The notes below the pieces were generated by a model. It worked only from the letters and a program-made list of their open reading frames with translations, made no database searches and was not told the DNA's origin. From IMG/VR virus record IMGVR_UViG_3300032291_002550, positions 436-64,435 of that record: a stretch of 64,000 nucleotides of DNA; one strand, given 5' to 3'. Shown piece by piece: positions 10,039 to 62,586 of this stretch. Position 1 is the stretch's first letter. Each line of letters opens with the position of its first letter. This DNA is from a virus. Position numbers and translations under genes: made by a program.

Positions 10039-10563
10039 ATGAGAAAATATCAATCAACAAAGCGCTTTGATAATTATAGTGTCGCGATTAGACAATGGAA
10101 AGCAAAACATTCTCATTGCCAACTCTTACATGGATATGCTTTAGAATTTAAAGTATGGTTTGAATCTGTAGATGGTGTAGATGAAGAACAATTAGATGAA
10201 ATGAATTGGATTGTAGATTATGGTATCTTTAGTCGTAACGGATTAAAAGATTGGATGAATGATATGTTTGATCATACCATGTTAATCGAGAAAGATGACC
10301 CCTATTATGATGTATTTGAACAAATGGGTCAAATGGGAATAGCTAAACCAATATTCATGGATAGAATCGGTGCAGAAAGTGCTGCTAAATTAGTATTTGA
10401 TAAGTTTAATGATGTATTTTCTAAAACAGAAGGTGGTAGAGTCAAAGTCGTTAAAGTAGAATGTTTTGAAAATAATAAGAATAGTTCAGTATATTATGAA
10501 GATAATATTCAATCAAATCAAATAAAAACAATAAAAAATCATAGCCCTGAACATGGGTGTTAA
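10039..10563 (+). CDS. queD: QueD-like 6-carboxy-tetrahydropterin synthase (PTPS fold) with non-canonical Zn-ligand positions
   Basis: HSHCQLLHGYALEF aligns to E. coli QueD HKCGRLHGHSF. The motif reads C-x3-H-G-Y, not C-x3-H-G-H, and the first His (AHRL) is replaced (AIRQ). Confidence 0.65.
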   Translation: MRKYQSTKRFDNYSVAIRQWKAKHSHCQLLHGYALEFKVWFESVDGVDEEQLDEMNWIVDYGIFSRNGLKDWMNDMFDHTMLIEKDDPYYDVFEQMGQMGIAKPIFMDRIGAESAAKLVFDKFNDVFSKTEGGRVKVVKVECFENNKNSSVYYEDNIQSNQIKTIKNHSPEHGC

Positions 10564-10825
10564 TAAACAAGTTATGGCAAATTACAGTAAACAATGGGTT
10601 GAAAATAATGACCCCAACGGTATCGAATGGGATTTTGATATCTTAGAAAAAGCAGATCTTTTACAAGCAGATACATACGTTCCAGAAATATGTGAAGGTT
10701 ATGGGTTTATTGCAATTGGTAGAAGTATTGATAATGAAATAATGTTGGCAGTGCCGGTACCTCCATTGCCAGATGATACCGAAGAAATGATACAATGGGT
10801 ACCATATAATGAAATAATAAAATGA
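10553..10825 (+). CDS. Hypothetical protein
   Basis: 90-aa ORF overlapping its neighbours by ATGA. Confidence 0.4.
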   Translation: MGVNKQVMANYSKQWVENNDPNGIEWDFDILEKADLLQADTYVPEICEGYGFIAIGRSIDNEIMLAVPVPPLPDDTEEMIQWVPYNEIIK

Positions 10826-11379
10826 AATTAAAACAGCTCTACAATAAGTTACTTTTAGAAAGATATGTTAATCTTACAGACGACTCTGACAGAAGAAAAT
10901 ATGGTCAGTTAGTTTGGAATATGCTCCAAGATTCATATAAAGATATCGGAGGATATAAAGGCGCGTCATCTATAGATGATTTAATCGCATCTTCGAGCTT
11001 ATGGAAATTAGTACGTCGTAATGGTAAAATTGTAGCGTTTTCTTTGTATAAAGATCTTAAAGGAAGAAAAGGAATTGGTGTTGCAACTGACGGGACTGAA
11101 GAGGGCAAAAAAGCACTTTATGATTTATGGGCAGAAGACCTAAAATTAAATAGATCATGGACAGAAGTATCTGGAAAGACCAAACATATTAAACTTAAAC
11201 ATGGATTTAAGCCGATTCCTAATAAGTATGCAGCAGAAATTTTAAATAAAGAAATTTTAAGTCTTAATCCTGATGGTATACATTATACAAGATTAATAGG
11301 TGGGGTTCCATATGAAAAAGCAATTGTAGGGCAAATACCTGGATATGAAAATGTCAAGGACTTTAAATACACAAAATAA
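10822..11379 (+). CDS. Hypothetical protein
   Basis: 185-aa ORF. Confidence 0.45.
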   Translation: MKLKQLYNKLLLERYVNLTDDSDRRKYGQLVWNMLQDSYKDIGGYKGASSIDDLIASSSLWKLVRRNGKIVAFSLYKDLKGRKGIGVATDGTEEGKKALYDLWAEDLKLNRSWTEVSGKTKHIKLKHGFKPIPNKYAAEILNKEILSLNPDGIHYTRLIGGVPYEKAIVGQIPGYENVKDFKYTK

Positions 11380-12008
11380 TGAATATAATTTATATACATG
11401 GATTTAAATCTGCTGGCGAAGGAGATAAATCTAATCAACTTAAGACATATTTCTCCAAGTATGGACAAAAAGTAAATATAATTAGCCCTACATTATCAGC
11501 CAATCCTAAAGAAGCCGTAAATACATTATCTTCAATTATTAAAGGTACTAAGGGTCCTGTTATTGTTGTAGGTACTTCATTAGGCGGATTTTATGCTTTA
11601 TATTGTGCGGCTAGATTTGATGTCCCGGCATTTGTAATTAATCCATCGTTAGAGCCTCATAAATCCTTAGCTAAGGATATCGGGACACATACGCGCTATG
11701 GAAGTGGCGAGCCATATGAATTTAAGAAAGAATATTTAGATTCATTAAAGTTTTTATTTGATGCTATTCAATCATCATCTATTACATCATCAAATTTACA
11801 TTTTTATATTTCTTCTGATGATGAACGTTTAACGTTTGATAAATTAGATCAATACTTTCCGTATAGAAAAACTTTAAAGAAGTTTGAAAATGCGGGTCAT
11901 AGATTTTCTAGATTCAACGAAATATTACCAGATATTGAAAATGTCGTAAAAGAATTAAATTTTATTACAGAAGCTTTGAAAAGAAATAAAAATTTATTAT
12001 ATATTTAA
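11379..12008 (+). CDS. Alpha/beta-hydrolase (YqiA/UPF0227-like esterase)
   Basis: IYIHGFKSAG and the nucleophile elbow VVGTSLGGFYA. Confidence 0.6.
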   Translation: MNIIYIHGFKSAGEGDKSNQLKTYFSKYGQKVNIISPTLSANPKEAVNTLSSIIKGTKGPVIVVGTSLGGFYALYCAARFDVPAFVINPSLEPHKSLAKDIGTHTRYGSGEPYEFKKEYLDSLKFLFDAIQSSSITSSNLHFYISSDDERLTFDKLDQYFPYRKTLKKFENAGHRFSRFNEILPDIENVVKELNFITEALKRNKNLLYI

Positions 12009-12023
12009 GTAAATAAAAAAGTT

Positions 12024-12413
12024 ATGGAAGAAAATTTTTATATCACAAAAGAAGTGATAAAAGATATAGAACATTCAGAAATTGATTATCTAATTCATGA
12101 AGAATTTGGTTATGATTATGAAAATGATCAAGAATTAGTTGAAATAGAAATCGGTAATGGCGAAGTTACAAATGCACCAATTAGTATTGATTTGATGATT
12201 AAGACATTTCAGGAATTAAAAGAACAAGGTGCAACGCACGTTTCTCTTGATTATCACTGCGACCATATTGGGTATGAAATGACAGGATATAAAATATATC
12301 ATTCAACAGAAGATCAAATTAAAGCTTATGAAGATAAGTTAGCAATTAATCAAGAAAAAGAGCTTAAATTAAGAGCATTACGAGAGGAATATAAAAGAAT
12401 AGAAAATGAGTAA
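12024..12413 (+). CDS. Highly acidic small protein
   Basis: 129 aa with a strongly biased D/E content. Confidence 0.45.
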   Translation: MEENFYITKEVIKDIEHSEIDYLIHEEFGYDYENDQELVEIEIGNGEVTNAPISIDLMIKTFQELKEQGATHVSLDYHCDHIGYEMTGYKIYHSTEDQIKAYEDKLAINQEKELKLRALREEYKRIENE

Positions 12414-12711
12414 GATTAAAATAAAAAAAGAAGTCTTTTTCCTTGAAAAGGATACGCCTATTACTTGGAAAGAAATTAAAGATTTCAAATTTGAAGATGA
12501 TGATATCATTGATATAGGTTCTGAAGAACCATATTATAGCGAAAATAATTCTTGGGAGGCTTTTTGTTATTGTCGTGTTGAAAGAATGGTTGAAGAGACT
12601 GATGAAGAATATGAGGATAGAATGGAAAGAAAAAAATCTACCGATTCATTATTAAAAAAGAATAGATATGAACAATATCTAAAACTTAAAAAAGAATTCG
12701 AAGTCGAATAA
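12406..12711 (+). CDS. Highly acidic small protein
   Basis: 101 aa, with EDDDIIDIGSEEPYY...EETDEEYEDRMERKK. Confidence 0.45.
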   Translation: MSKIKIKKEVFFLEKDTPITWKEIKDFKFEDDDIIDIGSEEPYYSENNSWEAFCYCRVERMVEETDEEYEDRMERKKSTDSLLKKNRYEQYLKLKKEFEVE

Positions 12712-12728
12712 AATAAATAAAAAAAGTT

Positions 12729-13562
12729 ATGAGTAAAATAAATAGTAATAAACTACTAATTAGTAGCGATTTTTACAGCATTCAAGGCGAGGGCATTTCA
12801 TCAGGAATACCAGCATATTTCGTAAGATTAGGAATATGTAACTTAACTTGCGGAATGTCTCGTAAATTTGCAAATCAATTGGAAAAAGATAAATCATTAG
12901 AAGATGGAGAAATCTTTGAAGGTGATTTACATAAAGAAGGTAAAGCAACTTGGACTTGTGATTCAACAAGCCAATGGTTATGGAGAGGTGAAGATAAAGA
13001 ATTCCAATATCTAATTGATAGATGGAAAGAACAAGATATCTATGAAGATATTAAGAATGGTACTATACGTATTATTTGGACTGGTGGAGAACCTACAATC
13101 AAAGGACATCAAGAAGCTATTGTCAACTTTCATAATTATTGGGCCGAACAAGGAGAGCCTACATTTAATTCTTATAGTGAAATAGAAACAAACGGAACAG
13201 TAGTAATCGAAGATCATTTATTCAGATTATTAAATCAAATCAATTGTTCTCCTAAATTATCTAACTCAGGTATGACTGAGAAGCAACGTATTAATCCAGA
13301 CGCTATCAAGCGTATAATGGAACATTCTAATTATCAATTTAAATTTGTTATATCCAATGAAGAAGACATTAAAGAATTATTCCGCGACTTTGTCGTACCA
13401 TTTAGCATACCGCTTTCCAATGTGGTTTGTATGCCAGGATTAGATGATGTAGCTAATTTTGAAGAACGTACTCAATTTGTATTAGAGATGGCTAAGAAAT
13501 ATAAGTTTAGAGGATTAACAAGATTGCACATTGCGGCATGGAATAAGACGTTAAATGTTTAA
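12729..13562 (+). CDS. queE: 7-carboxy-7-deazaguanine synthase (radical SAM QueE)
   Basis: N-terminal SIQGEGISSGIPAYFVRLGICNLTC matches the QueE signature EGxxxGxPxxFVRxxGCNLxC. Third Cys is distal (WTC). Confidence 0.75.
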   Translation: MSKINSNKLLISSDFYSIQGEGISSGIPAYFVRLGICNLTCGMSRKFANQLEKDKSLEDGEIFEGDLHKEGKATWTCDSTSQWLWRGEDKEFQYLIDRWKEQDIYEDIKNGTIRIIWTGGEPTIKGHQEAIVNFHNYWAEQGEPTFNSYSEIETNGTVVIEDHLFRLLNQINCSPKLSNSGMTEKQRINPDAIKRIMEHSNYQFKFVISNEEDIKELFRDFVVPFSIPLSNVVCMPGLDDVANFEERTQFVLEMAKKYKFRGLTRLHIAAWNKTLNV

Positions 13563-13565
13563 GTT

Positions 13566-13985
13566 ATGGATAAAGAACTAGAACAGTTTAAACAGTTTGA
13601 GCCTAAAAACTCTAATCGTTTTTATGTTAAATTTGGAGACCCATTTAATATACCTATTTATGTAATTAAAGAAGTTCAAAGACCTTCATTTAAAATGGCT
13701 AACTGCGGCATACAATGGAATGATATGATTTTTACTATGTATGACCCAATTAATCCATCAACATCTCAGGCTATCTTCGAAGGATTAAGAAAGTTAAGAA
13801 TGCAAGATTCTCAACAAATTAAAATTAATCTAAAGTTATTAGGCCCGATTGGGGATTCTATAGAATTATGGGATATTGTTGGGACTATAGATTATATAGA
13901 TTTTGGATATTTAGATTGGAATAGCGGTGACCCTCTTAATATAAAAGTAAATATTAAAGTACTACATGCAATATTACAATATTAA
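13566..13985 (+). CDS. Hypothetical protein
   Basis: 139-aa ORF. Confidence 0.45.
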   Translation: MDKELEQFKQFEPKNSNRFYVKFGDPFNIPIYVIKEVQRPSFKMANCGIQWNDMIFTMYDPINPSTSQAIFEGLRKLRMQDSQQIKINLKLLGPIGDSIELWDIVGTIDYIDFGYLDWNSGDPLNIKVNIKVLHAILQY

Positions 13986-13997
13986 AAACATATAAGT

Positions 13998-14141
13998 ATG
14001 AAAACAAGAGACGAACAAATTGATGATATCGCGAGGCATATAGCTCGAGGAGGATGGTCCTCTATTAGAGCATATGTCGAAGATCACATTCAAGATTGGG
14101 AATTAGAAGATGAAGATGAAATCAATACTGAAGAAGATTAA
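13998..14141 (+). CDS. Small acidic hypothetical protein (47 aa); alternative to, or overlapping, track ORF 14110..14307
   Basis: ORF MKTRDEQIDDIARHIARGGWSSIRAYVEDHIQDWELEDEDEINTEED, preceded by tataagtATG. Confidence 0.3.
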   Translation: MKTRDEQIDDIARHIARGGWSSIRAYVEDHIQDWELEDEDEINTEED

Positions 14142-14307
14142 ACTCAAATTTCATTATATAGGTAATGAAAATACATGGAGCTTTCTTCCTACAATACAAG
14201 GTTGGTATGTTGACTTAAAAAAATATAACCATGGGGATAATTACGCAATAGTTCTAAGATTTTTAAATAAAGCTGTTGGAATAAATATTTGCATAAAAAA
14301 TAAATAA
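14110..14307 (+). CDS. Small hypothetical protein
   Basis: 65-aa ORF. Its coding status is uncertain because it overlaps 13998..14141. Confidence 0.25.
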   Translation: MKMKSILKKIKLKFHYIGNENTWSFLPTIQGWYVDLKKYNHGDNYAIVLRFLNKAVGINICIKNK

Positions 14308-14311
14308 AGTT

Positions 14312-14548
14312 ATGAGTAAATATAGAATTACAGAAAAAGTAAATGGATTAGGAGAAAAGACATTCCATTTAGAAGAAGATAGACTTTTTGGATGGCATGA
14401 AGTTTATTATTCGATGGGACATGAATACTCTGCTCCTATTTATCATAAAACATTAGAAGATGCTATAGCTGAAAGAGATAGATTATTAGCAGCTGAAAAA
14501 CATGAAAAATTGGCTAACACAATAATATCAACTAAAGTAATAGAATGA
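14312..14548 (+). CDS. Small hypothetical protein
   Basis: 78 aa with the aagttATG context. Confidence 0.45.
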   Translation: MSKYRITEKVNGLGEKTFHLEEDRLFGWHEVYYSMGHEYSAPIYHKTLEDAIAERDRLLAAEKHEKLANTIISTKVIE

Positions 14549-14715
14549 AAAAGAATCAAATGGCAGCAGAAATGGTCAACAATTATATTGATAAAGTAAT
14601 TGAATCACTTACAGCACAAAGAGATAGTTTAAATGAACTTATCACAAACTGTGAAGAAATTAGAACGAATATATTAAATGAAATAAATAATACTACACAA
14701 ATTAATAATAAATAA
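14545..14715 (+). CDS. Small hypothetical protein (56 aa), not in the ORF track
   Basis: ORF MKKNQMAAEMVNNYIDKVIESLTAQRDSLNELITNCEEIRTNILNEINNTTQINNK with an ATGA overlap onto the upstream gene. Confidence 0.35.
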   Translation: MKKNQMAAEMVNNYIDKVIESLTAQRDSLNELITNCEEIRTNILNEINNTTQINNK

Positions 14716-14719
14716 AGTC

Positions 14720-15019
14720 ATGATAACAAGTAAACCATTAGGAGATAGAGTCTTAGTAGAAGCTCTTCCTAAAAATGAAGAAAAAACAACAGAAGCAGGA
14801 TTTTTTATTCCTGATTCAGCATCAACAGAAGATGTAAAATTTACAACAGTAGTAGCCGTAGGTGATGGTATCTTTACACAAAGCGGAACGCCAATTCCTA
14901 TGTCAGTAAAAGTAGGAGATAAAGTAGTTCTTCCTCCGTATCATCAAGGAAATGATATTAAGATTGACGGTAAAGATTATATTATTTTAAGAGAGTCTGA
15001 ATTATTAATGGTTCTGTAA
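14720..15019 (+). CDS. groES: Co-chaperonin GroES (Hsp10)
   Basis: PLGDRVLVE...EKTTEAGFFIP...VVAVGDG...VKVGDKVV...ILRESELLMV aligns along the full length of bacterial GroES. Confidence 0.85.
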   Translation: MITSKPLGDRVLVEALPKNEEKTTEAGFFIPDSASTEDVKFTTVVAVGDGIFTQSGTPIPMSVKVGDKVVLPPYHQGNDIKIDGKDYIILRESELLMVL

Positions 15020-15055
15020 TTTGGTTTTTACAGTTGTTTCTCTTATATTAATGAT

Positions 15056-16240
15056 ATGATAAAGAAAAATTTATTCTATTTCGGGTTAGAACCCTTAAAA
15101 TCAAGATATACATTTCAGCTATCAACACGTTGGATGCCAGAAGCGTTTGAGCTTCAAAATGATAAAATTAATTTTATTGATGTAACGGGTGAGTTTGATG
15201 AAGATGCAGAAATTAAAGTAGGTGCAGTATTAGATGCTGTAGGTCGTGGTAAGTTTGCAATGAGCCAGTGCTCGAACTTTTTGGAATGTATTAGGCAAGG
15301 TCATGTAAAAGATGGAGATATTATCTTCTTGCAAGATTTTTGGACTCCGGGTATTGAAAGTATCTTTTATGCTTTAGACCTTTACGGTTATAAAGATATT
15401 AAGTTTTACGCTCGTAATTGGGCTCAATCTTCGGACGAATATGATTTTACCTTTGCAATGAGAAAGTGGATGAGACATTACGAATTGGGGCTAGATAAGC
15501 GTTTAAATGGTATGTTCGTTGGAAGTACTTTACATAGAGATTTGTTAAGAGCTGATGGGTTTACTTGTCCGATACATGTTGTATCTATGCCAGTTTCAGC
15601 AGAAGAAATAAGAAGTAAAGTTCCAGGTTGGAAAGAAAAGTTACTAGAACCGAAGAAAAATGTAGTTATGTTTTCATCTAGATTGGATAAAGAAAAAAAT
15701 CCATTCTTTATGCTTGAGGTAGCTAAGAAGTTCTTAAGAGAAAATCCTAATTTCCAATGGCACGTTACTACATCTGGTAAAGAATTAAGAAGTATGCTTC
15801 CGGGCGTAATAGATGCTTTTAGATTATATGCTAAAGAAGAATCTAGATTCAAATTATTAGAAGGATTAACTAAAGAAGAATATTATGAGGAATTAGCATC
15901 CAATGCTATCATCTTTAATTCTTCTTTACAAGATTGGGTATCATTTACAATTGTAGAAGGAACAGCATTTGGTATTGATGTAGTATATCCTAATTTTAGA
16001 GGATTTCCAGAACAAGTACCAGCAAATAGAATGTATACTCCTTTTGATGTAGACTCGGCAGTTAAGGTATTAGATACAACTATTGATGATATGGCTTATA
16101 ATGGAAGCACTAATTATGGTATTGTTGAGAGAAGCGACTTGGGAAGAAGAACAGAAGCTTGGATTGTAGCTAATAATCCTGATTTTGAATTAAATATTTG
16201 GCATGAAGCTGAATTATGTACAGAACTATTAAAAAAATAA
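15056..16240 (+). CDS. Putative GT-B fold glycosyltransferase (paralogue of 20285..21379; T4 beta-glucosyltransferase-like C-terminus)
   Basis: Shares the D(F/A)W(T/N)P(G/A)I motif and overall layout with ORF 20285. It is ~400 aa, the size of T4 DNA glucosyltransferases. Confidence 0.45.
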   Translation: MIKKNLFYFGLEPLKSRYTFQLSTRWMPEAFELQNDKINFIDVTGEFDEDAEIKVGAVLDAVGRGKFAMSQCSNFLECIRQGHVKDGDIIFLQDFWTPGIESIFYALDLYGYKDIKFYARNWAQSSDEYDFTFAMRKWMRHYELGLDKRLNGMFVGSTLHRDLLRADGFTCPIHVVSMPVSAEEIRSKVPGWKEKLLEPKKNVVMFSSRLDKEKNPFFMLEVAKKFLRENPNFQWHVTTSGKELRSMLPGVIDAFRLYAKEESRFKLLEGLTKEEYYEELASNAIIFNSSLQDWVSFTIVEGTAFGIDVVYPNFRGFPEQVPANRMYTPFDVDSAVKVLDTTIDDMAYNGSTNYGIVERSDLGRRTEAWIVANNPDFELNIWHEAELCTELLKK

Positions 16241-16857
16241 CAATGAAGAATTTTAAACAATACACTGAAGAAGAAAAAAATGAAATCATAGAAACTGCCA
16301 GTAAGCATTATTATGATTTCATGAAGGCCTTAGGATTAGATCCTGATTCAAATCCACATGAAATAGATACGCCAAGAAGAGTATCTAAATCATTTGTTAA
16401 CGATTTGATTAAATCAAAGTTTAATGAGCCACCTAAGATTACAGCATTTTCTAACACAGATGGATATGACGGAATGGTATTTCAAGGAGATATTAATGTT
16501 AAGTCTATTTGTAGCCATCATCATTTGCCGTTCACCGGTAAAGCATATGTAGCATATCTTCCAGCGCCAGATGGTAAAGTAATTGGTTTAAGTAAGTTAA
16601 ATCGTGTTGTAGATTATTTTTGTCGTATGCCGCAAGTCCAAGAAAATTTAACTGAACAGATAAGCGCGTATTTAAATAAAACATGTGAAGGTAATTTAGG
16701 TGTTGCAGTAGTAATAGAAGCAGGACATCAATGCGCGTGTTTAAGAGGTATACAGCATGATTCGACAATGATGACATCAAAATTAACTGGTGCATTTAAA
16801 GCTGATGCTGCTACCCGCGATGAATTTTATAAGTTTATAGGATATCTTAAAAAATAA
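16216..16857 (+). CDS. folE: GTP cyclohydrolase I (FolE)
   Basis: SICSHHHLPFTGKAYVAYLP matches the FolE CEHHLVPF zinc/active-site motif. Confidence 0.9.
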   Translation: MYRTIKKITMKNFKQYTEEEKNEIIETASKHYYDFMKALGLDPDSNPHEIDTPRRVSKSFVNDLIKSKFNEPPKITAFSNTDGYDGMVFQGDINVKSICSHHHLPFTGKAYVAYLPAPDGKVIGLSKLNRVVDYFCRMPQVQENLTEQISAYLNKTCEGNLGVAVVIEAGHQCACLRGIQHDSTMMTSKLTGAFKADAATRDEFYKFIGYLKK

Positions 16858-16858
16858 A

Positions 16859-17356
16859 ATGGCCCAGTATAGTACATCATTAACAGAAAGATTTCCAGTA
16901 ACCGGTACTAAAGGACAAATCGGAGAAGAGTGGCTTAAGTCAATATTACAGTCATATGGTTATGAAGTAACTGATTATGCAGGTCAAGTAGAACATCAAA
17001 AGCGCGGTTATGACTTTAGTATTAAGAAACCAGAATGGTTACGAGAATATTATCTAGATTGTAAAAATAATTTGTATTGTGATTGGGAATTGCATTTTAA
17101 AATAGAGATTGAAGATCATGGAAAGCTCGGTTGGTTTTTTTCGAGCCGAGCTGATCGAATCTATCATGTAAACCCATATACTAATACCTATATAATGTAT
17201 GATTTAAATGAAATGCGTAAATTGGTAGTAGATGCCTTATTAACTAATAATACTACGTTATTTAAAAGAGTAGATTATAAAGGGGCAATTCTTCTGCAGT
17301 TTGATATTACTCAAAACAATAAAGGATTATATCCTATAACAATAAAAAAACATTAA
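16859..17356 (+). CDS. Hypothetical protein
   Basis: 165-aa ORF between folE and the DNA polymerase gene. Confidence 0.45.
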   Translation: MAQYSTSLTERFPVTGTKGQIGEEWLKSILQSYGYEVTDYAGQVEHQKRGYDFSIKKPEWLREYYLDCKNNLYCDWELHFKIEIEDHGKLGWFFSSRADRIYHVNPYTNTYIMYDLNEMRKLVVDALLTNNTTLFKRVDYKGAILLQFDITQNNKGLYPITIKKH

Positions 17357-17359
17357 TAA

Positions 17360-19903
17360 ATGTATAAAAACGTATATTACGACAGAACAAATAACGAAGT
17401 TATTGTGTGGGATGACAAAAAGGGACGTCTTAACTTTAAATATAAAAAATACGCATATATCAAAGCCCCAAATGGAAAATATACTGCTTTAGACGGTAAT
17501 CGTGTAGAGAAAGTATATAATTGGGATAGAGAGGATGAACAAAGAGGAATTATATATGAATCAGATGTGAAGCCTGAATTACGTATTCTAATCGATAATT
17601 ACGGAGACACAGATGATATTTCAGAAGATATAACTACATTATTTTTTGATATTGAAGTATCTAAAGGAGATGGATATTCTACTCCATGGGAAGCTGATAA
17701 TGAAGTAACAGCAATAACTTTATATGATAATATTTCAAAAGATTGGAATGTATTATTATTGGATAAAGAACATTTAACAAAAAATAAAAGAACAGATAAA
17801 TATATCTTCGAAGCATTTTCGTCTGAAAAAGATTTATTAATGCGATTCTTTCAACTTTATCTAGAAATTAGCCCAGACATTTTAACAGGATGGAATATAG
17901 ATGGTTTTGACGTTCCTTATATCTATAACAGAACTAAAAAGCTTTTAGGAGCTAATGTTGCTAAACAATTAAGTCCAGTAGGAGTAGTTTCAAAAGACTT
18001 CCGTAAAGACAGAATGAATATTGGTGGTGTAGCTGCACTAGATTATATGTATTTGTATAAAGCATTTACTTATAACGAAGAACCTTCTTATGCTTTAGAA
18101 TTTATATCTCAAAAAGAATTAGGTCGCGGAAAGATTCAGTATGAAGGAGACTTAGATAATCTTTATAAACAAGATTTAGAAAAGTTTATTGAGTATAATA
18201 TTAATGACGTTCAATTGGTTGTAGACTTAGATGAGAAACTAGACTTTATTACATTAGCAAGAAACATTGCTCATAAAGGACATGTTCCTTATGAAGATGT
18301 ATTTGCATCTAGTAGATATTTGGATGGAGCTTGTCTTACTTACTTAAATCGACTAGGAGTTATTGCTACTAATAAACCCTTAAGAGAAGAAAGTGACGAA
18401 GATGAAGATTCTGACGAAAATGGATTTGAAGGAGCATTTGTAAAAGATCCTAAACCAGGATTGTATGAATGGGTATTTGACTTAGATTTAAAAGCCTTAT
18501 ATCCTTCAACTCAAAGAACGGTTAATATATCTCCTGAAACTAAGGTATGTAAGATTGAAAATTGGGACCATGTAAAATTCATGAAGAATGATGAAACTTA
18601 TGTATATAAGTATAAATCTAAATCTTGGAAAGGAATGGAGCTAAGAAAATTCTTAGAAGAAAATAATTTCTCTATCTCAGCTGTTGGTGTAATATATGAT
18701 CTTAAAACAAAAGGATTAGTTCCATCTATCTTAGAAAAGTGGGATACAGAAAGAACAGAATATCGACAACTTGCAAAGAAATATGGTGAAGGTGGTAATG
18801 AAAAAATGTATCGTTTCTTTGACTCTCGTCAATTAACTATGAAGATTTTATCTAACTCTTTATATGGTGTATTAGGAAATGCTGGATTTAGATTTTATGA
18901 TATTGATAATGCTGAAGGAACTACATTAGGAGGTAAAGCAGTTATTATGCATAAAACAAATTATGCTAATAATTGGCTAAACCAAAAATTAGGAACGAGT
19001 GGCATTGATTATGTATTGTATATTGATACGGATTCTGCATTCTTCTCAGCAATGCCGTTAATTAAAAAGATGCAAAGAAACCAAGGACGTGAATTAACTA
19101 GAGATGAATGTGCAGATATTACTTTTAAATTAGCCGTAGCTTGTGAAAGTGTTATTAATTCAACGTTTGATGAATTTGCAAAGAACGCATTTAATGCAAC
19201 AGAACATCATTTCCAAACAAAACAAGAATATGTATCTGAAACGGCAATATGGATTGCAAAGAAAAGATATGCTCAAAAAATTATCTCTGAAAAGGGTGTA
19301 AGTATATCTAAAATGACAAATGGTAAAAAAGAATACAAACTAGATGTAAAAGGATTGGATGTTGTAAGATCTTCATTTCCAAAAGCATTTAGAGGATTTA
19401 TGTCAGGCATTATTATTGATATTCTTAATAAAGCAGAAAAGCAAGAAATTGTTGATAAGATATTTGATCTTAAAGACTCATTACCTACATTAGACATTTA
19501 TGATATTATGACTATATCTGGTATTAAAGAATTAAGTAAGTATCCTTGTAAGAAAACAGGTTCTATATTTAAAACAAGACCAAAAGGAATGCCTATTCAT
19601 GCTAAATCTTGTGCAAATTTTAATGACCTATTAGAGCACTTTAAAATTAATTCAATGGCGCCTATTAGTGATGGAGATAAAATAAAATGGACTTACTTAA
19701 AACCTAACCGATTAGGTATTGAAACCTTAGCGCTAACGGGCTTTAATGATCCAATGGATATCTATTCTATCGTTAAGGAACATATTGATTATACGAGCAT
19801 CTTTGAAGCTTCCTTAGAAAATAAACTTAATGACTTTTTCGTTGCATTGGGATGGTCGGAAGTTCCTAAGAATAATCACGGAAAAAAATTCTTTGAATTT
19901 TAA
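17360..19903 (+). CDS. DNA polymerase, family B (T4 gp43-like)
   Basis: Exo I FDIEVS, Pol motif A DLDLKALYPS, motif C YIDTDSAFF. 847 aa. Confidence 0.9.
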   Translation: MYKNVYYDRTNNEVIVWDDKKGRLNFKYKKYAYIKAPNGKYTALDGNRVEKVYNWDREDEQRGIIYESDVKPELRILIDNYGDTDDISEDITTLFFDIEVSKGDGYSTPWEADNEVTAITLYDNISKDWNVLLLDKEHLTKNKRTDKYIFEAFSSEKDLLMRFFQLYLEISPDILTGWNIDGFDVPYIYNRTKKLLGANVAKQLSPVGVVSKDFRKDRMNIGGVAALDYMYLYKAFTYNEEPSYALEFISQKELGRGKIQYEGDLDNLYKQDLEKFIEYNINDVQLVVDLDEKLDFITLARNIAHKGHVPYEDVFASSRYLDGACLTYLNRLGVIATNKPLREESDEDEDSDENGFEGAFVKDPKPGLYEWVFDLDLKALYPSTQRTVNISPETKVCKIENWDHVKFMKNDETYVYKYKSKSWKGMELRKFLEENNFSISAVGVIYDLKTKGLVPSILEKWDTERTEYRQLAKKYGEGGNEKMYRFFDSRQLTMKILSNSLYGVLGNAGFRFYDIDNAEGTTLGGKAVIMHKTNYANNWLNQKLGTSGIDYVLYIDTDSAFFSAMPLIKKMQRNQGRELTRDECADITFKLAVACESVINSTFDEFAKNAFNATEHHFQTKQEYVSETAIWIAKKRYAQKIISEKGVSISKMTNGKKEYKLDVKGLDVVRSSFPKAFRGFMSGIIIDILNKAEKQEIVDKIFDLKDSLPTLDIYDIMTISGIKELSKYPCKKTGSIFKTRPKGMPIHAKSCANFNDLLEHFKINSMAPISDGDKIKWTYLKPNRLGIETLALTGFNDPMDIYSIVKEHIDYTSIFEASLENKLNDFFVALGWSEVPKNNHGKKFFEF

Positions 19904-19925
19904 TTAGTTTTTATTATATTATATT

Positions 19926-20285
19926 ATGAAAGATTTAAAAACCACTGTAATGGTCAAGTTATCAGTAGATGCTTGTCATAACTTTCCTTTAGCTGCGGAA
20001 TTATTTCCTGAGGTAGATTTCCTAGCAGATAGACATAGACATATGTTTCATTTTACTTTATCAAAAAAAGTATTTCATGACGATCGAGATGTAGAGTTTA
20101 TCATGTTCAAGAGAGATGTATTAGAATATCTTTTAGAAAAATATTATGATCATAGTACTAGAACACATGAATTTGGAGCTCAATCCTGTGAAATGTTAGC
20201 CAAAGAGCTATTAAATGAATTTGATTGTGAATGGGTTGAATGTTGGGAAGATAATGAAAATGGCGCTCGCTGCGAATTAGTATAA
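19926..20285 (+). CDS. Hypothetical protein
   Basis: 119-aa ORF. Confidence 0.45.
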   Translation: MKDLKTTVMVKLSVDACHNFPLAAELFPEVDFLADRHRHMFHFTLSKKVFHDDRDVEFIMFKRDVLEYLLEKYYDHSTRTHEFGAQSCEMLAKELLNEFDCEWVECWEDNENGARCELV

Positions 20286-21379
20286 TGAAAACAATCTATA
20301 TCTTAGACAGTAAGACGATTGAATTAAAATATATACGTAATTGGCAAAATAATCTTCAAGAATGTTTAGAGGAGTTTATTCAAAAGAAATCACTTAAATA
20401 TCAAGTAAAAACTCTTTATGATATTCAACCGAACCCATTATCAATTATAGATAATAGTCCTTTAACATTTAAAGATATTGTAAATCAACAAGCTTCGCAG
20501 TCTACCAGATTTGCGGAGCTCTTTTACAATAAAGAAGTACACCAAGGAGATCATTTTATTTTTATGGATGCTTGGAACCCTGCTATCTTTCAATTACGTT
20601 ATTTATCTACAGTATATCGTATACCTATTTGGATTCATGGATTTTGGCAAACCGGATCATTTAATAAAACATCTTATCTAGCATTTGCCAAAACATTAAC
20701 ATGGCAAAAAAATGCAGAACGAGCTTTAGTAGCTGCTATTAATCATAACTATTATGATAGCGATTATCATTTATCTTTACTTAAAAGCTTATTCAAAACA
20801 TTCGGAGCAAAGAATTTATTTAATAATCCAGGAAGAGTTCAAAAAGCTGGTCCTCCAATGACTCATGTACGTGATTATGCCGAGCAATTTAAAAAAACAA
20901 AGAAACGCGATATGATTTTATTTGCTGATAAAGGTACAGTAGATCGTAACATGATTATTTTTCGTGAACTGCAACGAGCAATGCCTCAATATGAATGGGT
21001 TTGTATAGAAGATAAAATGCCAAATGAAACTCAGTATCATGGATTATTAGCTTCTTCTAAATACGTATTAATCTTAGATTTAATTGATTCTTCTTCTATA
21101 ACAGCTTTTGAAGCCATGATGCACGGAGCAATACCATTAGCACCTGACAGATTAAACTTTAAAGAAATTGTACCAGAGAAATGGAGATATCCTTCGGAAT
21201 GGACATTAAGTTATTTAAATTACACGGAAAATTATACAGTAATTATAGATTATATCAAAGACCGTATGGAGAACTATGATACATATAAAGAAGGTATTGA
21301 AGAATGGGCGAAATATTTAGATACAAATTATTATAGAGTAGATGCGTTAAAAAATAACGTTTTTTATTTGGAACAATAA
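20285..21379 (+). CDS. Putative GT-B fold glycosyltransferase (paralogue of 15056..16240)
   Basis: FMDAWNPAIFQLRYL parallels LQDFWTPGIESIFYAL in ORF 15056. C-terminal ITAFEAMMHGAIPLAPDRLNF resembles T4 BGT ITLRVWETMASDAVMLIDEEF. Confidence 0.45.
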   Translation: MKTIYILDSKTIELKYIRNWQNNLQECLEEFIQKKSLKYQVKTLYDIQPNPLSIIDNSPLTFKDIVNQQASQSTRFAELFYNKEVHQGDHFIFMDAWNPAIFQLRYLSTVYRIPIWIHGFWQTGSFNKTSYLAFAKTLTWQKNAERALVAAINHNYYDSDYHLSLLKSLFKTFGAKNLFNNPGRVQKAGPPMTHVRDYAEQFKKTKKRDMILFADKGTVDRNMIIFRELQRAMPQYEWVCIEDKMPNETQYHGLLASSKYVLILDLIDSSSITAFEAMMHGAIPLAPDRLNFKEIVPEKWRYPSEWTLSYLNYTENYTVIIDYIKDRMENYDTYKEGIEEWAKYLDTNYYRVDALKNNVFYLEQ

Positions 21380-21396
21380 TTATAATAAATATAAAC

Positions 21397-22122
21397 ATGA
21401 AAAAATCAGAACTAAAAGTATTGATTAAGGAAGAGATTAAGAAAGTCTTGAAGGAAGAAGCAAATGAATCAAACTCGTTGAGTTCTTCAAATCTAAAACC
21501 CGGGGATATTATTATATTTTCTCAGGATGCTACTCCAAAATGGAAACGTTTTATTAATGGATTGGTATCCGGGTTTTATATGTCGAATATTCAGCCTAAA
21601 GCCGGTGATAAATTTAAAGTAACCGACTATGAAACATCATGGTCAGTAGGAGATTATCCTTTACAAAATCTAAATAGACCTAATGAGTTTATTAAAGCTA
21701 CAAATGGTGAAGATCAAATATCAGCACCTAGATCATGGATAGATAGTTTAATTAATAAAGGAATAGTTAATGTTAATAAACAATCTTCTTTAAAAGAATG
21801 GAATTCAAATAATCCTTTTGATGTTATGGCATTAACTGATAAAGAAGATTTGCAAGATATTTCAACTATACAATCTTTCGTAGAATATCATCATTTACCA
21901 AAATTAATTATTGATATATGTAAATATGCTGCAGAAGAGTTAAATGTATATCCAATTAAAATTACTCAACAAGGAATGGTATTTCCTTCCAAAGGATTTA
22001 ATAAAGTTGAATTAGAATTTAAAAATAATGGCCAAATTAATCTTTATAAATTTATTGGACGTACTTTAGATTCAGCATATCCATTTGAATATAAAATTTT
22101 TAAAGATATGATAACTAAATAA
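21397..22122 (+). CDS. Hypothetical protein
   Basis: 241-aa ORF. Confidence 0.45.
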   Translation: MKKSELKVLIKEEIKKVLKEEANESNSLSSSNLKPGDIIIFSQDATPKWKRFINGLVSGFYMSNIQPKAGDKFKVTDYETSWSVGDYPLQNLNRPNEFIKATNGEDQISAPRSWIDSLINKGIVNVNKQSSLKEWNSNNPFDVMALTDKEDLQDISTIQSFVEYHHLPKLIIDICKYAAEELNVYPIKITQQGMVFPSKGFNKVELEFKNNGQINLYKFIGRTLDSAYPFEYKIFKDMITK

Positions 22123-22135
22123 TTAAAATAAAATT

Positions 22136-22157
22136 AGCCCGAAAGGGCTTTTTTTAT
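22136..22157 (+). terminator. Rho-independent terminator
   Basis: agcccgaaagggct followed by T8. Confidence 0.75.
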
Positions 22158-22216
22158 GTTCTACATTAGGTTCTTTGAAATAATATCTTTATATTAGATA
22201 AAAAATAAGTTATAAA

Positions 22217-23425
22217 ATGGATTTATCAAAAATCACAGCACCGAACCCAAACAGAAAGCCATTATTTATTCCTTCATTATCCGCAGGAGGAACAGCAGCT
22301 TCTTTAAAAAAGAATAGAGAAGTTGAACCCGGTTTAACAACTAGATTTTATGCGGAAGATTTCCCAGAAGAATTTCGCCACCCATACTTCTTAATTACAG
22401 CAGGACATTTTTATAAAAAGATGGATGCTCGTGTAACATTTGGATTAGAGAATGTATTTACATTTGGAGATTCAGGAGGTTTCCAGATTGCATCAGGAGC
22501 TATTAAATGGGATGTAGGTATTAGAGATCAGATACTAGCATTCTTAGAAGAAAATTCAGACGTAGCTGCAAATTTAGATATTCCACCTCGTATGTCATAT
22601 GAAGGTAAATTTCAAGAATCATTAGATTTTAGTTACGATAATTTTAAATACTTTGCTAGTAAGCAACAAGGTAAAACTAAATTCTTAAACGTACTTCAAG
22701 GAAATAATCCTAGTCAGTTTAATTTATGGTATGATACCGTAAAAGACTTTGATTTTAAAGGATGGTGTGTTGGAGGTAGTCGTAGATTAGTAGATTTTAT
22801 TTATACTATTGCTTTATTCTTAGAGAATCGTGAATTTGAAAATCCAAGAAATGAATTTATTCATATGTTAGGTATTTCTAAAGTATCTGATTTCTTTATA
22901 CTTGGAACTTATCAAGCTCTTTTAAATAAGCATTATGGAGGTAAGATTCAATTAATGACGGATAGTTCTTCACCGGGACAATTTCCAGTATATGGAGATA
23001 TTATTTTAGCTCCGAATTTTGGAACATTAAATTGGACGCAAATGCATGTTTCTAGAGATATTAAGTATACAGCTGAAAAACTAATGCCTGTTCTTTATCA
23101 TACACCGGTATCTAAAAATTTTACAATGGGCGTAGTTAATGATTATAAACAAGAATATTATGATAGAGCTACCATTCAAAATTTATTAGTATTTAATAAA
23201 GGTATGTATGATATTGCAGATTTTTGTTCTGGAGATGTAGAGTTATTACAAGGAATTGTTCCGAATGATATGCATATTATTCTTAAATCAATACATGAAA
23301 TGTTCGAACAACCAGATAATGCATATAAAATTTACGAGAAGTATAGACATTATTACGTAAATTATGGAGGAGATTGGGTTCCTAGTCAAAACAGAGAAAT
23401 ATTAAATAATTTCTTTGAAAATTAA
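22217..23425 (+). CDS. dpdA: DpdA-like transglycosylase (tRNA-guanine transglycosylase family; predicted to insert 7-deazaguanine into DNA)
   Basis: TGT catalytic signature FGDSGGFQ, a TIM-barrel-length protein (402 aa), and co-occurrence with folE, queD and queE. Confidence 0.75.
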   Translation: MDLSKITAPNPNRKPLFIPSLSAGGTAASLKKNREVEPGLTTRFYAEDFPEEFRHPYFLITAGHFYKKMDARVTFGLENVFTFGDSGGFQIASGAIKWDVGIRDQILAFLEENSDVAANLDIPPRMSYEGKFQESLDFSYDNFKYFASKQQGKTKFLNVLQGNNPSQFNLWYDTVKDFDFKGWCVGGSRRLVDFIYTIALFLENREFENPRNEFIHMLGISKVSDFFILGTYQALLNKHYGGKIQLMTDSSSPGQFPVYGDIILAPNFGTLNWTQMHVSRDIKYTAEKLMPVLYHTPVSKNFTMGVVNDYKQEYYDRATIQNLLVFNKGMYDIADFCSGDVELLQGIVPNDMHIILKSIHEMFEQPDNAYKIYEKYRHYYVNYGGDWVPSQNREILNNFFEN

Positions 23426-29540: not shown

Positions 29541-29589
29541 CCATCAACTTTTTGGTGTAATATAATAATTATAATAAATAAAGATTTAT

Positions 29590-30504: not shown

Positions 30505-30577
30505 TCCTGAAGTTAAATATGATCTTGAAATACAAGATAACCACAACTATTTTGCAAACGATATACTAGTGCATAAT
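30464..30577 (+). mobile_element. Split intein C-terminal half (IntC, 38 aa)
   Basis: Ends in block G NDILVHN, followed by the Cys+1 of the extein. Confidence 0.75.
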
Positions 30578-32935: not shown

Positions 32936-32949
32936 CAAAAATTAAAAGT

Positions 32950-52541: not shown

Positions 52542-53867
52542 ATGGCAAGAGAAATTATCCTAGGCACTTGTCATGTATTTGATTATGTGATTGTCGGTGG
52601 CGCATTAAAACATCCAGAAGAAGGTCAAATAATTGACTTATCTCAATCAGTTAAGAAAGATACTGGTATTGATGCTAATGTTAAAATTTATCCTGTATCT
52701 GGTTATGGTACTCAAGAATTAGTACGTCATTTAATCTCTACAGAATCTCCGGATGTATTATTACATTTTACAGACCCTAGATATTGGACATGGTTGTATC
52801 AAATGGAAAATGAAATACGTCAAAGAATTCCAATTACTTACTTAAATATTTGGGACTGTCCACCACCCCCAATGTATAATAAACCTTATTATAAATCATG
52901 TGATTTATTAATGAATATTTCGAAGCAAACTTACGGAATTGTTCATAAGGTATTAGAAGGAGAAAATTATGAAGATTGGCAAATTACCTATGTTCCGCAC
53001 GGAATAAACGACTCACATTTCTTTCCAATATCAAAAGACTCAGACACATATAAAAGTGTCGTAGACTTAAGAAAATCATTCTTAAAGGGTAAGAAAAATA
53101 AAGATGTAATTCCTCAATTTGTATTTTTATTTAATTCTAGAAACATAAGAAGAAAACAAACAGCAGATATTATATTAGCATATAAAATGTTCTGCGATAA
53201 ACTTTCGAAATCAGAAGCAATGAAATGCGTTCTTGTTCTTCATACTCAACCAGTTGATGAAAATGGAACAAACTTATTAGAGGTTATTGAAACTTTATGT
53301 CCAGAATATAACGTTACTTTTACAGATAAATCATTTAATGTTCATGAAATGAATATACTTTATAACTCTTCAGATGTTTTAATTAATATTTCAAGTAATG
53401 AAGGATGGGGATTATCTGTAACAGAAGCTATAATGACTGGTAAAAATGTTATCGTAAATATGACTGGCGGTCTTCAAGATCAAGTTGGATTAATGAAAGA
53501 CGATGGCACATTAGTTACTAAAGAAGATTATAAAGATAAAGAATGGCATTCAAATCATGATGGAAGATATAACAAATGGGGTTCTTGGGCAATACCAATT
53601 ATTCCGAGCAATCGTTCTATTCAAGGGTCTATTCCAACTCCTTATATATTTGACGATCGTGTAAAGATTGAAGACTTAATGAATGCTATGCTGAAATGGT
53701 ATAATACTAATGAAGAAGAAAGAATTCATTCAGGAATAAAAGGTCGTCAATATCTTATTGATAACAGAATGAATGCAAAAGGAATGTGTGAGAATGTTAT
53801 AAAAGACATTACAACTTGCTTAGAAAATTTCGAGCCTAAAGAAAGATATTCAATTATTAAATTATAA
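52542..53867 (+). CDS. Glycosyltransferase (GT-B, GT4-like)
   Basis: C-terminal NISSNEGWGLSVTEAIMTGKNVIV matches the GT-B E-x7-E / EGFGL-type motif. 441 aa. Confidence 0.65.
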   Translation: MAREIILGTCHVFDYVIVGGALKHPEEGQIIDLSQSVKKDTGIDANVKIYPVSGYGTQELVRHLISTESPDVLLHFTDPRYWTWLYQMENEIRQRIPITYLNIWDCPPPPMYNKPYYKSCDLLMNISKQTYGIVHKVLEGENYEDWQITYVPHGINDSHFFPISKDSDTYKSVVDLRKSFLKGKKNKDVIPQFVFLFNSRNIRRKQTADIILAYKMFCDKLSKSEAMKCVLVLHTQPVDENGTNLLEVIETLCPEYNVTFTDKSFNVHEMNILYNSSDVLINISSNEGWGLSVTEAIMTGKNVIVNMTGGLQDQVGLMKDDGTLVTKEDYKDKEWHSNHDGRYNKWGSWAIPIIPSNRSIQGSIPTPYIFDDRVKIEDLMNAMLKWYNTNEEERIHSGIKGRQYLIDNRMNAKGMCENVIKDITTCLENFEPKERYSIIKL

Positions 53868-53880
53868 AATCAAAATAAAT

Positions 53881-54300
53881 ATGTTACATAGAATCATCAA
53901 TTGGATTGTAAGTCCATTCAAAAAGAAAGAAGAAGTAGTAGAAGTACCTACTACATTTACATTAACTAACTCAGTTCCATTATCAGAAACTACAAAGAAA
54001 CAGATTAGAGAAGATCTTATTGAAGCTGTGAAAGAGTTTAAAGAAAAACATTCTGCTGATATAGATACTTTACCGTTATCTAGAGTTTCAGCAGAAGCTA
54101 AAGAAAAGATTGCTGAAGTAATTAAAAGCGACCTTAAGGAACAAATGGAAGTTTATCCAATAACAGAAGAAGTTACTATTAATCATGAAGTAACCGTTAC
54201 AGAAACTCCAAAAACAAAAAAGAAACGTTATTATAAAAAGAAACCAAAGGTTACTAATAACGAATCTACAGTATCAAATACTAAAAAGAGTTCTAAATAA
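53881..54300 (+). CDS. Lys/Glu-rich hypothetical protein
   Basis: 139 aa with a KKKRYYKKKPK tail. Confidence 0.4.
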   Translation: MLHRIINWIVSPFKKKEEVVEVPTTFTLTNSVPLSETTKKQIREDLIEAVKEFKEKHSADIDTLPLSRVSAEAKEKIAEVIKSDLKEQMEVYPITEEVTINHEVTVTETPKTKKKRYYKKKPKVTNNESTVSNTKKSSK

Positions 54301-54302
54301 AA

Positions 54303-55625: not shown

Positions 55626-55631
55626 CGTTAT

Positions 55632-56147
55632 ATGTCATTGCAAATTAAATCATTACTTCTTCGAGAAGAATTAGAGCATCTTAATGAATTAACTCTAGGA
55701 ACTACAAAACCTTTTATTATATCAAAGGCATTAACACCAATTCCAGGAGATAAAGGATACTTTGAAGTATTTTATGCTCCGATTGAAGGGATAAATGATG
55801 ACAGTTCAATACCTGAGGTAATCGTTACATTTGCACATGTGAGAGATAATAAGTATGAGATGGGATTTACAATAAATGGCAGAGATACTCAAGCATTTAA
55901 AGCACCTATTTCATACTATCTTCGAATTATTAAAACAGTGACCTTAATAATTACAAAGTTTATACATAAAATTAACCCAGAAGCTATACGTCTTAGAGGC
56001 ATGGATAAAGAAAATGTATATAAGCCCGGTCAAAAAGATCGAATATACTTTTCATTTATGCAACAAGAAGGTCCGAAACTAGGATATCGTGTTGCGCAAG
56101 ATGGAAATGGATATCTAATAATGATAAAAAATAAAATAACTAATTAA
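55632..56147 (+). CDS. Hypothetical protein
   Basis: 171-aa ORF. Confidence 0.45.
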   Translation: MSLQIKSLLLREELEHLNELTLGTTKPFIISKALTPIPGDKGYFEVFYAPIEGINDDSSIPEVIVTFAHVRDNKYEMGFTINGRDTQAFKAPISYYLRIIKTVTLIITKFIHKINPEAIRLRGMDKENVYKPGQKDRIYFSFMQQEGPKLGYRVAQDGNGYLIMIKNKITN

Positions 56148-56148
56148 A

Positions 56149-56652: not shown

Positions 56653-56653
56653 T

Positions 56654-58073: not shown

Positions 58074-58077
58074 GCTA

Positions 58078-62567: not shown

Positions 62568-62586
62568 TATTTATTATATTATTGTT

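Follow-up and report, generated by a model that had tools for sequence, protein, structure and literature searches.

Which modified base would a phage place in its DNA if it carries the genes for the early steps of 7-deazaguanine synthesis and for a DNA transglycosylase but shows no recognizable QueC, and why should two glycosyltransferase (GT) genes stand among them? These questions are raised by a 64-kb stretch of viral DNA (positions 436 to 64,435 of IMG/VR record IMGVR_UViG_3300032291_002550, hereafter the window), in which folE, queD, queE, and a dpdA-like gene lie between 10 and 23.4 kb among replication genes (Table 1). A preliminary description of the window, made from its letters alone, had proposed that the pathway stops at 7-carboxy-7-deazaguanine (CDG), so that the DNA would contain 2'-deoxy-CDG (dCDG), possibly decorated with sugars. 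Our analysis points to another outcome, namely a QueC-independent deazaguanine module of the type found in phages phiST and ACP17, which involves the QueD paralogue DpdL and includes a GT step; we assign this explanation as a whole a probability of roughly 0.6. That the 10–23.4 kb region holds a DpdL-type, QueC-independent module is very likely, and that the GTs are functionally part of it is an evenly balanced proposition. The sequence available to us comprised the window and 6 kb upstream of it, from a genome of about 197 kb.

Table 1: Features of the window discussed in the text (aa, amino acids; ORF, open reading frame; TGT, tRNA-guanine transglycosylase).
Feature	Position	Strand	Size	Remarks
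QueD (6-carboxy-tetrahydropterin (CPH4) synthase), phage variant	10039..10563	+		Pfam PTPS 6.5e-12, 45.9 bits vs cut-off 22.4; phrog_2389 2.5e-31
QueE (CDG synthase, radical S-adenosylmethionine)	12729..13562	+		phrog_2076 6e-39
GT-B glycosyltransferase paralogue 1, GT4-like (predicted)	15056..16240	+	394 aa	between groES and folE
FolE, GTP cyclohydrolase I	16216..16857	+		Pfam GTP_cyclohydroI 5.1e-49; phrog_2197 2.6e-57
DpdL, QueD paralogue, proposed CDG decarboxylase	19926..20285	+	119 aa	directly 3' of DNA polymerase gene
GT-B glycosyltransferase paralogue 2, GT4-like (predicted)	20285..21379	+	364 aa	between dpdL and dpdA
ORF of unknown function	21397..22122	+	241 aa	between GT paralogue 2 and dpdA; no significant family match
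DpdA-like DNA-guanine transglycosylase, TGT fold (predicted)	22217..23425	+	402 aa	DSGGFQ at 22469
Sugar island	52542..63900	+		GT1 (two), GT2, 620-aa sugar-phosphate nucleotidyltransferase, GT61, DegT aminotransferase (Pfam matches)

Genes of a Probable DpdL-Type Deazaguanine Module

QueC was sought in the window by motif, by sequence, and by profile. A six-frame scan revealed neither the SGGxDS motif nor a looser PP-loop motif. Searches with E. coli QueC, five phage QueCs, and one Gat-QueC gave a weak best match (E = 0.06) to a Metallophos ORF, and a hidden Markov model (HMM) of seven QueC sequences reached only E = 1.6. The preliminary description was therefore right that the window has no QueC, and none was found in the 6 kb upstream. 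Thus, the enzyme that marks the branch leading to 7-cyano-7-deazaguanine (preQ0), dADG (2'-deoxy-7-amido-7-deazaguanine), and 2'-deoxyarchaeosine (dG+), whether QueC or Gat-QueC, was not detected in the window or the 6 kb upstream.

The window does encode a protein that had been overlooked in the preliminary description, DpdL. The ORF directly 3' of the DNA polymerase gene contains FLADRHRHMFHF, and its sequence FLADRHRHMF fits the motif LxxxHRHxF. DpdL has been defined as a QueD paralogue in which LxxxHRHxF replaces CxxxHGH, and for phage phiST it was proposed to be the enzyme that decarboxylates CDG (Cui et al. 2023, PMC10516641). In translated searches (tblastn), the window protein was 38.3% identical to phiST CGPG_00067 (2e-17) and 35% identical to the ACP17 homologue (9e-10), and its H18, HRH, RD.EF, SCE, and ED.EN residues were conserved across eight phages. 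The QueD paralogue with LxxxHRHxF that marks the DpdL branch is thus found in the window. Phage phiST, which lacks QueC, encodes FolE, QueD, QueE, DpdL, and a TGT homologue, and its DNA contains 100% 2'-deoxy-7-deazaguanine (dDG), with dCDG undetected (Cui et al. 2023, PMC10516641). Because the window encodes DpdL, the missing QueC is the expected signature of this published branch and is not in itself new.

For the same reason, the prediction that the pathway ends at CDG and yields dCDG loses its basis, since the window encodes the very enzyme proposed to decarboxylate CDG. Under that prediction, DpdA would insert CDG, and the resulting dCDG might be esterified with a sugar; a carboxylate would plausibly serve a GT-B enzyme as an acyl-glycoside acceptor. 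The absence of QueC from the window is in keeping with such an ending, as are the existence of related GT-dpdA loci without DpdL and a published table in which a DpdA2 inserts CDG at low efficiency in queC-deleted E. coli. Nevertheless, we consider dCDG very improbable, as the window DpdL retains all signature residues, phiST has the same FolE/QueD/QueE/DpdL set and replaces all G by dDG with no dCDG detected, and STSV-2, the sole virus reported to contain dCDG, has a different gene set.

The other biosynthetic genes named in the preliminary description, those for FolE, a QueD-like protein, and QueE, were all recovered by Pfam or PHROG matches (Table 1). The metagenome gene call places the FolE start at 16243 (204 aa). 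In the window QueD, AIRQ replaces AHRL and C-x3-HGY replaces C-x3-HGH, and one of the three zinc-ligand histidines is retained. These substitutions are as previously described, but they are no oddity of this phage. The phiST QueD (CGPG_00071) is 40% identical (1e-39) and has identical substitutions, and the form with RQ(W/P) and C-x3-HGY is common to the QueDs of phiST, ACP17, and BUCT-ZZ01; a profile of the variant additionally matched the QueDs of BCSR5, RHph_I1_18, and MA9V-3. Since phiST, ACP17, and BUCT-ZZ01 have the variant, as do QueC-bearing related loci and loci in which DpdL is missing, it represents a QueD clade that is widespread among phages rather than a lesion. We also considered whether the QueD variant, which has the Cys and lacks two His, and DpdL, which has three His and no Cys, could form one heteromeric CPH4 synthase; this was rejected because the variant is also present in QueC-type and DpdL-less loci.

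The window QueE matched five NCBIfam QueE models with E-values of 8e-15 to 3e-7, each under its cut-off. Its cysteines are arranged as C37-x3-C41-x35-C77 and align with the CX3CX2C cysteines of the ACP17 QueE, with a 33-aa insert within the motif. In an alignment with the QueEs of ACP17, BUCT-ZZ01, PA5oct, and phiST, the Cys positions agreed and the inserts varied; those of BUCT-ZZ01 and PA5oct were similar in size to that of the window QueE.

The DpdA-like protein had no sequence match in Pfam, PHROG, NCBIfam, or the Protein Data Bank (PDB), and direct searches with DpdL against PDB and Pfam were likewise empty; identification of the two proteins therefore required profiles built from homologues, a predicted fold, and the published motif. 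The DpdA-like family comprises at least 711 metagenomic homologues, some of which carry PF01702 at 47% identity to the window protein, and 13 of 40 aligned members matched PF01702. The AlphaFold2 (AF2) model (pLDDT 89.2, pTM 0.89) retrieved only TGT and ArcTGT structures among its top 50 Foldseek matches in PDB (E 4e-9, probability 1.0). Throughout the family, D85 (in DSGGFQ), D121, and D249 are unchanged, and from their motif positions they are taken to be the TGT catalytic aspartates. These results agree with the earlier assignment of a DpdA/TGT-family protein with a DSGGFQ signature.

The window protein was related to ACP17 gp123 (hhalign probability 95%, E 2e-8), to PA5oct gp168 (tblastn 7e-17), and, at an hhalign probability of 69%, to a 416-aa BUCT-ZZ01 protein. 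Among predicted viral structures, its model fitted large TGT-like proteins, one of them the 464-aa Vibrio phage nt-1 protein R9TGF0 (E 6e-10, TMq 0.58), which we take to be the published DpdA2 of that phage, better than small proteins of the DpdA1 type, which gave TMq values of 0.40–0.46. We describe the 402-aa protein as a large form resembling DpdA2 and the proteins of ACP17 and PA5oct, without assigning it to a subfamily; it showed no sequence relatedness to the DpdA3 of phiST.

Glycosyltransferase Genes Adjoining dpdA and dpdL

The preliminary description had likened two proteins of about 380 aa to T4 beta-glucosyltransferase. They are indeed distant paralogues with a glycosyltransferase fold, but they resemble family GT4 rather than the T4 enzyme. 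The two matched each other in BLASTP (4e-6), had one HMM family in common, and both matched the single ACP17 GT (6e-18 for paralogue 1 and 2e-16 for paralogue 2). Paralogue 1 matched Pfam Glycos_transf_1 (2.1e-6, 27.8 bits versus a cut-off of 26.4) and was 37% identical to the BUCT-ZZ01 GT that abuts dpdL (2e-52). Paralogue 2 had no Pfam, PHROG, or NCBIfam match of its own and was 29% identical to PA5oct gp167 (8e-39). A joint profile of the two retrieved at least 733 metagenomic proteins, many of which were annotated as PF00534.

Structure prediction, a check on which the glycosyltransferase assignment could have failed, gave a GT-B fold for paralogue 2 (pLDDT 84, pTM 0.84). Its Foldseek neighbours in PDB were the retaining GT4 enzymes BshA, MshA, PglA, and WaaG and glycogen synthase (E 6e-9, TM about 0.6); T4 beta-glucosyltransferase (GT63) was absent from its top 50 PDB matches and gave no sequence match. 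The C-terminal domain of the family has a D/E-x7-E motif (D-x7-E in paralogue 2), an invariant E276, and a nearly invariant K207, and the N-terminal domain has a conserved patch of GD...DxW.P, W140, and E145. From sequence and model, both proteins are predicted to be GT4-like, retaining-type GT-B enzymes, and the nearest structures act on small acceptors or glycans.

The pathway genes had been described as dispersed, which holds for queD, queE, and folE. In contrast, dpdL, the GT gene, and dpdA, with an ORF between the latter two, lie in a compact block that immediately follows the DNA polymerase gene, and this block is conserved in relatives. A PolB-DpdL-GT-DpdA block was found in three long metagenome contigs, two of which also have a second GT paralogue near folE, like the window; in locus L019, an orthologue of paralogue 1 (1e-159) lies directly upstream of the DpdA-like gene. 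The intervening 241-aa ORF showed a sub-threshold match to USP7_ICP0_bdg (Pfam 1.7e-4, 21.5 bits versus a 27-bit cut-off), which we regard as chance, and no homologue was present in the other loci examined. It appears to be lineage-specific, and its membership in the module is uncertain.

Eighty IMG/VR loci with DpdA-like relatives were scanned using local profiles, and 70 had enough flanking sequence. In 64 of the 70 loci, the DpdA-like gene had a GT-family gene no more than 3.5 kb away, and DpdL was present as well in 43 of these 64; since most of the 70 loci come from one broad T4-like clade, these counts are not independent. QueC stood beside dpdA in five loci (L079, L091, L092, L093, and L100), all with more distant DpdA-like members, and none of the five had the GT or DpdL nearby. 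One locus had neither GT nor QueC, and QueC combined with an adjacent GT was found in none of the 70.

These counts bear on a further explanation, in which QueC is supplied by the remaining 133 kb of the genome or by the host and preQ0 or ADG is inserted, as in classical DpdA phages or Campylobacter phages. The readable sequence amounted to 64 kb and the adjoining 6 kb upstream out of about 197 kb, and the more distant family members just mentioned do adjoin QueC. However, the QueC loci have neither DpdL nor an adjacent GT, so that the two configurations look like alternatives, and the clusters of ACP17, PA5oct, BUCT-ZZ01, Phosso, X1, and BCSR5, read over 13–25 kb each, yielded no QueC. We consider a QueC supplied from elsewhere to be highly improbable, slightly more so than dCDG.

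The association of GT with dpdA or dpdL was also seen in six isolated phages. In PA5oct, the GT gp167 lies between the DpdA-like gp168 and the DpdL-like gp166. The order is QueD-FolE-x-DpdA-GT-DpdL-QueE in ACP17, GT-"queuine tRNA-ribosyltransferase"-DpdL-QueE in Xanthomonas phage X1, DpdA-DpdL-GT in BUCT-ZZ01, and DpdL-GT in Phosso; in BCSR5, the GT is followed by a 446-aa ORF (candidate dpdA) and then QueE. These phages belong to unrelated lineages, and the genes have remained close together while their order was permuted. The earlier observation that two GT paralogues are physically tied to the deazaguanine gene set is thus upheld. In the literature that could be searched, no link was found between DpdA or DpdL and a glycosyltransferase, and the term "glycosyl" was absent from the two key deazaguanine papers; the embedding of a GT beside dpdA/dpdL in QueC-less systems is apparently an undescribed variant of a known pathway. 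Separately, X1 carries in this cluster, right after folE, a 177-aa gene of the "PAPS reductase family" in the PP-loop superfamily (L102:7341-7874), which the QueC profile did not match and which could encode an amidating or activating enzyme in that phage.

Proposed Pathway and Possible Role of the Glycosyltransferases

By family assignment, FolE would convert GTP to dihydroneopterin triphosphate (H2NTP), the QueD variant would form CPH4, and QueE would form CDG. DpdL would then remove the carboxyl group to give 7-deazaguanine (DG), as proposed for phiST, and the TGT-fold DpdA-like enzyme would exchange G for the deazapurine in DNA after replication; here the fold comes from the model, and the substrate is presumed. 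On the basis of linkage, one or both GTs would most likely transfer a sugar from a nucleoside diphosphate (NDP)-sugar to the deazapurine, or they may instead provide an accessory function required by DpdA or DpdL. The gene content predicts dDG, or a glycosylated form of it, in the DNA rather than dCDG or dPreQ0.

The GTs may, however, have nothing to do with the deazapurine. The DNA would then contain plain dDG, as in phiST; the GTs would act elsewhere, on another DNA base, a virion or host glycan, or a metabolite, and their position would reflect inherited synteny. This would be consistent with the fact that phiST-type phages make dDG without a GT, that DG has no hydroxyl acceptor, that the separate sugar island of the phage holds four more GTs, that the supporting loci belong mostly to one clade, and that the nearest GT structures are GT4 enzymes for small molecules or glycans. 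An unrelated role is difficult to reconcile with a GT that stays beside dpdA or dpdL in isolates of six unrelated lineages although the gene order is permuted, and with the finding that, within the DpdA-like family, the GT is missing exactly where QueC is present. In addition, no hydroxymethyl-pyrimidine pathway is visible. We examined the decoration of hydroxymethyl-pyrimidines by the GTs as a candidate and rejected it for the window, as its one ThyA homologue scores as a genuine thymidylate synthase equivalog (TIGR03284, 306 bits versus a cut-off of 108) and no hydroxymethylase is present in the window. Overall, we regard plain dDG with GTs acting elsewhere as unlikely.

Several other observations weigh against a QueC-independent module with a GT step. 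The modification in this phage is predicted from its genes, and the phage itself is known only from metagenome assemblies; the inspection for QueC covered the window and 6 kb upstream out of about 197 kb. The decarboxylase activity of DpdL is a published proposal only (PMC10516641). The DpdA-like protein showed no detectable relation to phiST DpdA3 (CGPG_00065, 259 aa; BLASTP E 1.7, hhalign 0.9%). dDG offers no obvious sugar acceptor at C7, and the GTs are acidic (pI 5.3–7.7) with no hint of DNA binding, the pI being uninformative in this respect. Moreover, phiST, MA9V-3, RHph_I1_18, and Bakedbeans have DpdL with no GT within about 9 kb, indicating that GT is not needed for dDG as such. Conversely, about eight related loci have GT-dpdA and no DpdL, with an unrelated conserved ORF of 139–149 aa in the place of DpdL. 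Because of these two groups, it is the large DpdA-like enzyme in QueC-less systems, not DpdL as such, that the GT tracks.

The 139–149-aa ORF (MYGKSYWYGKEVEGR...PHIYF...) was located directly upstream of GT-dpdA in L019 (8405-8824), L024, L025, L027, L029, L031, and L080, and it may be a non-homologous replacement of DpdL.

The conserved linkage of GT with DpdA/DpdL suggests a sugar-decorated deazapurine or a necessary accessory step, and it strengthens the former idea, which was raised in the preliminary description. We tentatively propose, while considering it rather doubtful, that phages with a large DpdA and a linked GT (this phage, PA5oct, ACP17, X1, BCSR5, BUCT-ZZ01, and hundreds of aquatic T4-like phages) carry glycosylated 7-deazaguanine in their DNA. 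The sugar might be added to the free deazapurine before its insertion by DpdA or to the base in DNA, and the two paralogues of the window might add two sugars or serve two sequence contexts. As to the donor, the sugar island could supply NDP-sugars to the module, but nothing ties the two together; in the relatives L019–L021, similar islands of GT and nucleotidyltransferase genes are found downstream of the module.

If the GT acts on the deazapurine, the product would represent a new class of DNA hypermodification and the first sugar-bearing purine hypermodification in DNA. When dpdL of phiST or ACP17 was expressed together with the respective dpdA in E. coli, no dDG was formed, and the authors noted that other enzymes were possibly required (PMC10516641). 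PA5oct DNA resists cutting at G-containing restriction sites, and its modification is sensed by nucleases that recognize modified G (PMC12191111). A GT acting on the deazapurine would explain the failed reconstitution with ACP17 dpdL and dpdA, and it would identify the G modification of PA5oct, a therapeutic jumbo phage, that is sensed by END nucleases. It also has a bearing on the sequencing of an abundant aquatic group of T4-like phages and on their resistance to restriction and CRISPR, and the hypothesis can be tested in phages that are already cultured.

Genome Setting and Other Genes of the Window

The window belongs to the genome, about 197 kb in size, of a T4-like phage. Its G+C content is about 30%, nearly all genes are on the + strand, and its replication and T4-like genes encode a DnaB-like helicase, ribonucleotide reductase, dUTPase, GroEL/GroES, a gp43-type PolB, a sliding clamp, a clamp loader, gp32, and UvsX. 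By PolB, the closest isolate is Microcystis phage Mel-JY01, at only 41.6% identity, and the 13.4-kb stretch had no megablast match among 50,697 phage records. Proteins from the first half of the window were identical to proteins of scaffold_7 (196,913 bp) of ENA assembly ERZ28594725. The ends of this scaffold and of two Logan contigs meet at about 13471–13526 of the window, inside queE, with an overlap of about 55 bp, which implies that the scaffold is circular or permuted and that the genome is about 197 kb. Exact look-ups found neither of the window proteins at 43428 and 62587 on scaffold_7, implying that the window derives from an assembly that is rotated or closely related.

Both chaperonin components are phage-encoded, GroEL (Cpn60, 538 aa) at 28–1644 and GroES (Cpn10, 99 aa) at 14720–15019, and groES lies within the que/folE neighbourhood in relatives also. 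A 165-aa ORF without a family match (16859–17356) is situated between folE and the DNA polymerase gene, and in L019 and L020 this slot is occupied by a PF00156 phosphoribosyltransferase; BUCT-ZZ01 has an "XGPRT" phosphoribosyltransferase inside its que cluster. The phosphoribosyltransferase of the relatives could recycle guanine released by DpdA or make the deazapurine nucleotide. It was rejected as a part of the window module, since no PF00156 gene was found in the window and the ORF at this position is unrelated. In L021, a homologue (9.5e-26) of the 139-aa ORF that directly follows queE in the window (13566–13985) comes immediately after the DpdA-like gene, and the ORF may be associated with the module.

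Several genes outside the module were unusual. The thymidylate synthase at 37330–38559 has 409 aa, compared with the usual 265–320 or so, and ThyA models matched it in two to four separate stretches, implying a large internal insertion. A DNA ligase is apparently split at 28863–31315 into a 225-aa ORF with a weak Intein_splicing match, a DUF7487 gene (29590–30504), and a 283-aa ORF matching Intein_splicing (weakly), DNA_ligase_A_M, and OB_2; this region may represent a split intein, or else a fractured gene into which a mobile ORF has inserted. Another DUF7487 gene was found at 51400–52425. The segment 32441–32936 contains tRNA-Pro(TGG) and an aberrant tRNA-like call of 93 nt, whose "anticodon" has two bases and which overlaps the start of a HAD_SAK_2 gene; there are two HAD_SAK_2 paralogues (32896–33525 and 34351–34941). 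Within the sugar island, a 362-aa protein (56985–58073) had weak matches to 2H-phosphoesterase and anti-CBASS Acb1 (2.8e-4 and 3.9e-4), both under the cut-offs.

Comparison with Known Systems

The gene set of the window resembles that of Cellulophaga phage phiST (PMC10516641) in its four biosynthetic families, its QueD variant (40% identity), its DpdL (38%), the lack of QueC, and a TGT-superfamily gene near dpdL. It differs in that the phiST transglycosylase is the 259-aa DpdA3 instead of a 402-aa protein, that an AAA_18 kinase-like gene rather than a GT lies between dpdL and dpdA, and that the genes of phiST are tightly clustered. The Acidovorax phage ACP17 (gp119-gp126) and the Pseudomonas jumbo phage PA5oct (gp168-gp162) share with the window a large DpdA-like protein, a GT belonging to the family of the window GTs, DpdL, and QueE, all side by side. 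Both have a single GT copy compared with two in the window, and the order is dpdA-GT-dpdL instead of dpdL-GT-orf-dpdA. Furthermore, their clusters are compact, whereas in the window groES and the DNA polymerase gene come between the genes.

The DpdA2 phage nt-1 and the classical DpdA1 phages 9g and CAjan (Hutinet et al. 2019, PMC6884629) likewise combine a TGT-fold transglycosylase with FolE, QueD, and QueE. In contrast to the window, systems of this type have QueC (or Gat-QueC, ArcS, or QueF), insert preQ0 or its derivatives, and have no DpdL and no linked GT. The alpha- and beta-glucosyltransferases of T4, which act on 5-hydroxymethylcytosine (5hmC), are similar in being phage GT-B enzymes encoded near DNA-modification genes and in the concept of decorating DNA with sugar after replication; they lie outside the top 50 structural neighbours of the window GTs, which group with GT4 and Pfam Glycos_transf_1. 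Finally, although huimycin and dapiramicin are actinomycete secondary metabolites built on preQ0 and not DNA bases, these N2-glycosylated 7-deazaguanine natural products provide a precedent for a glycosyltransferase that uses the 7-deazaguanine base as its acceptor.

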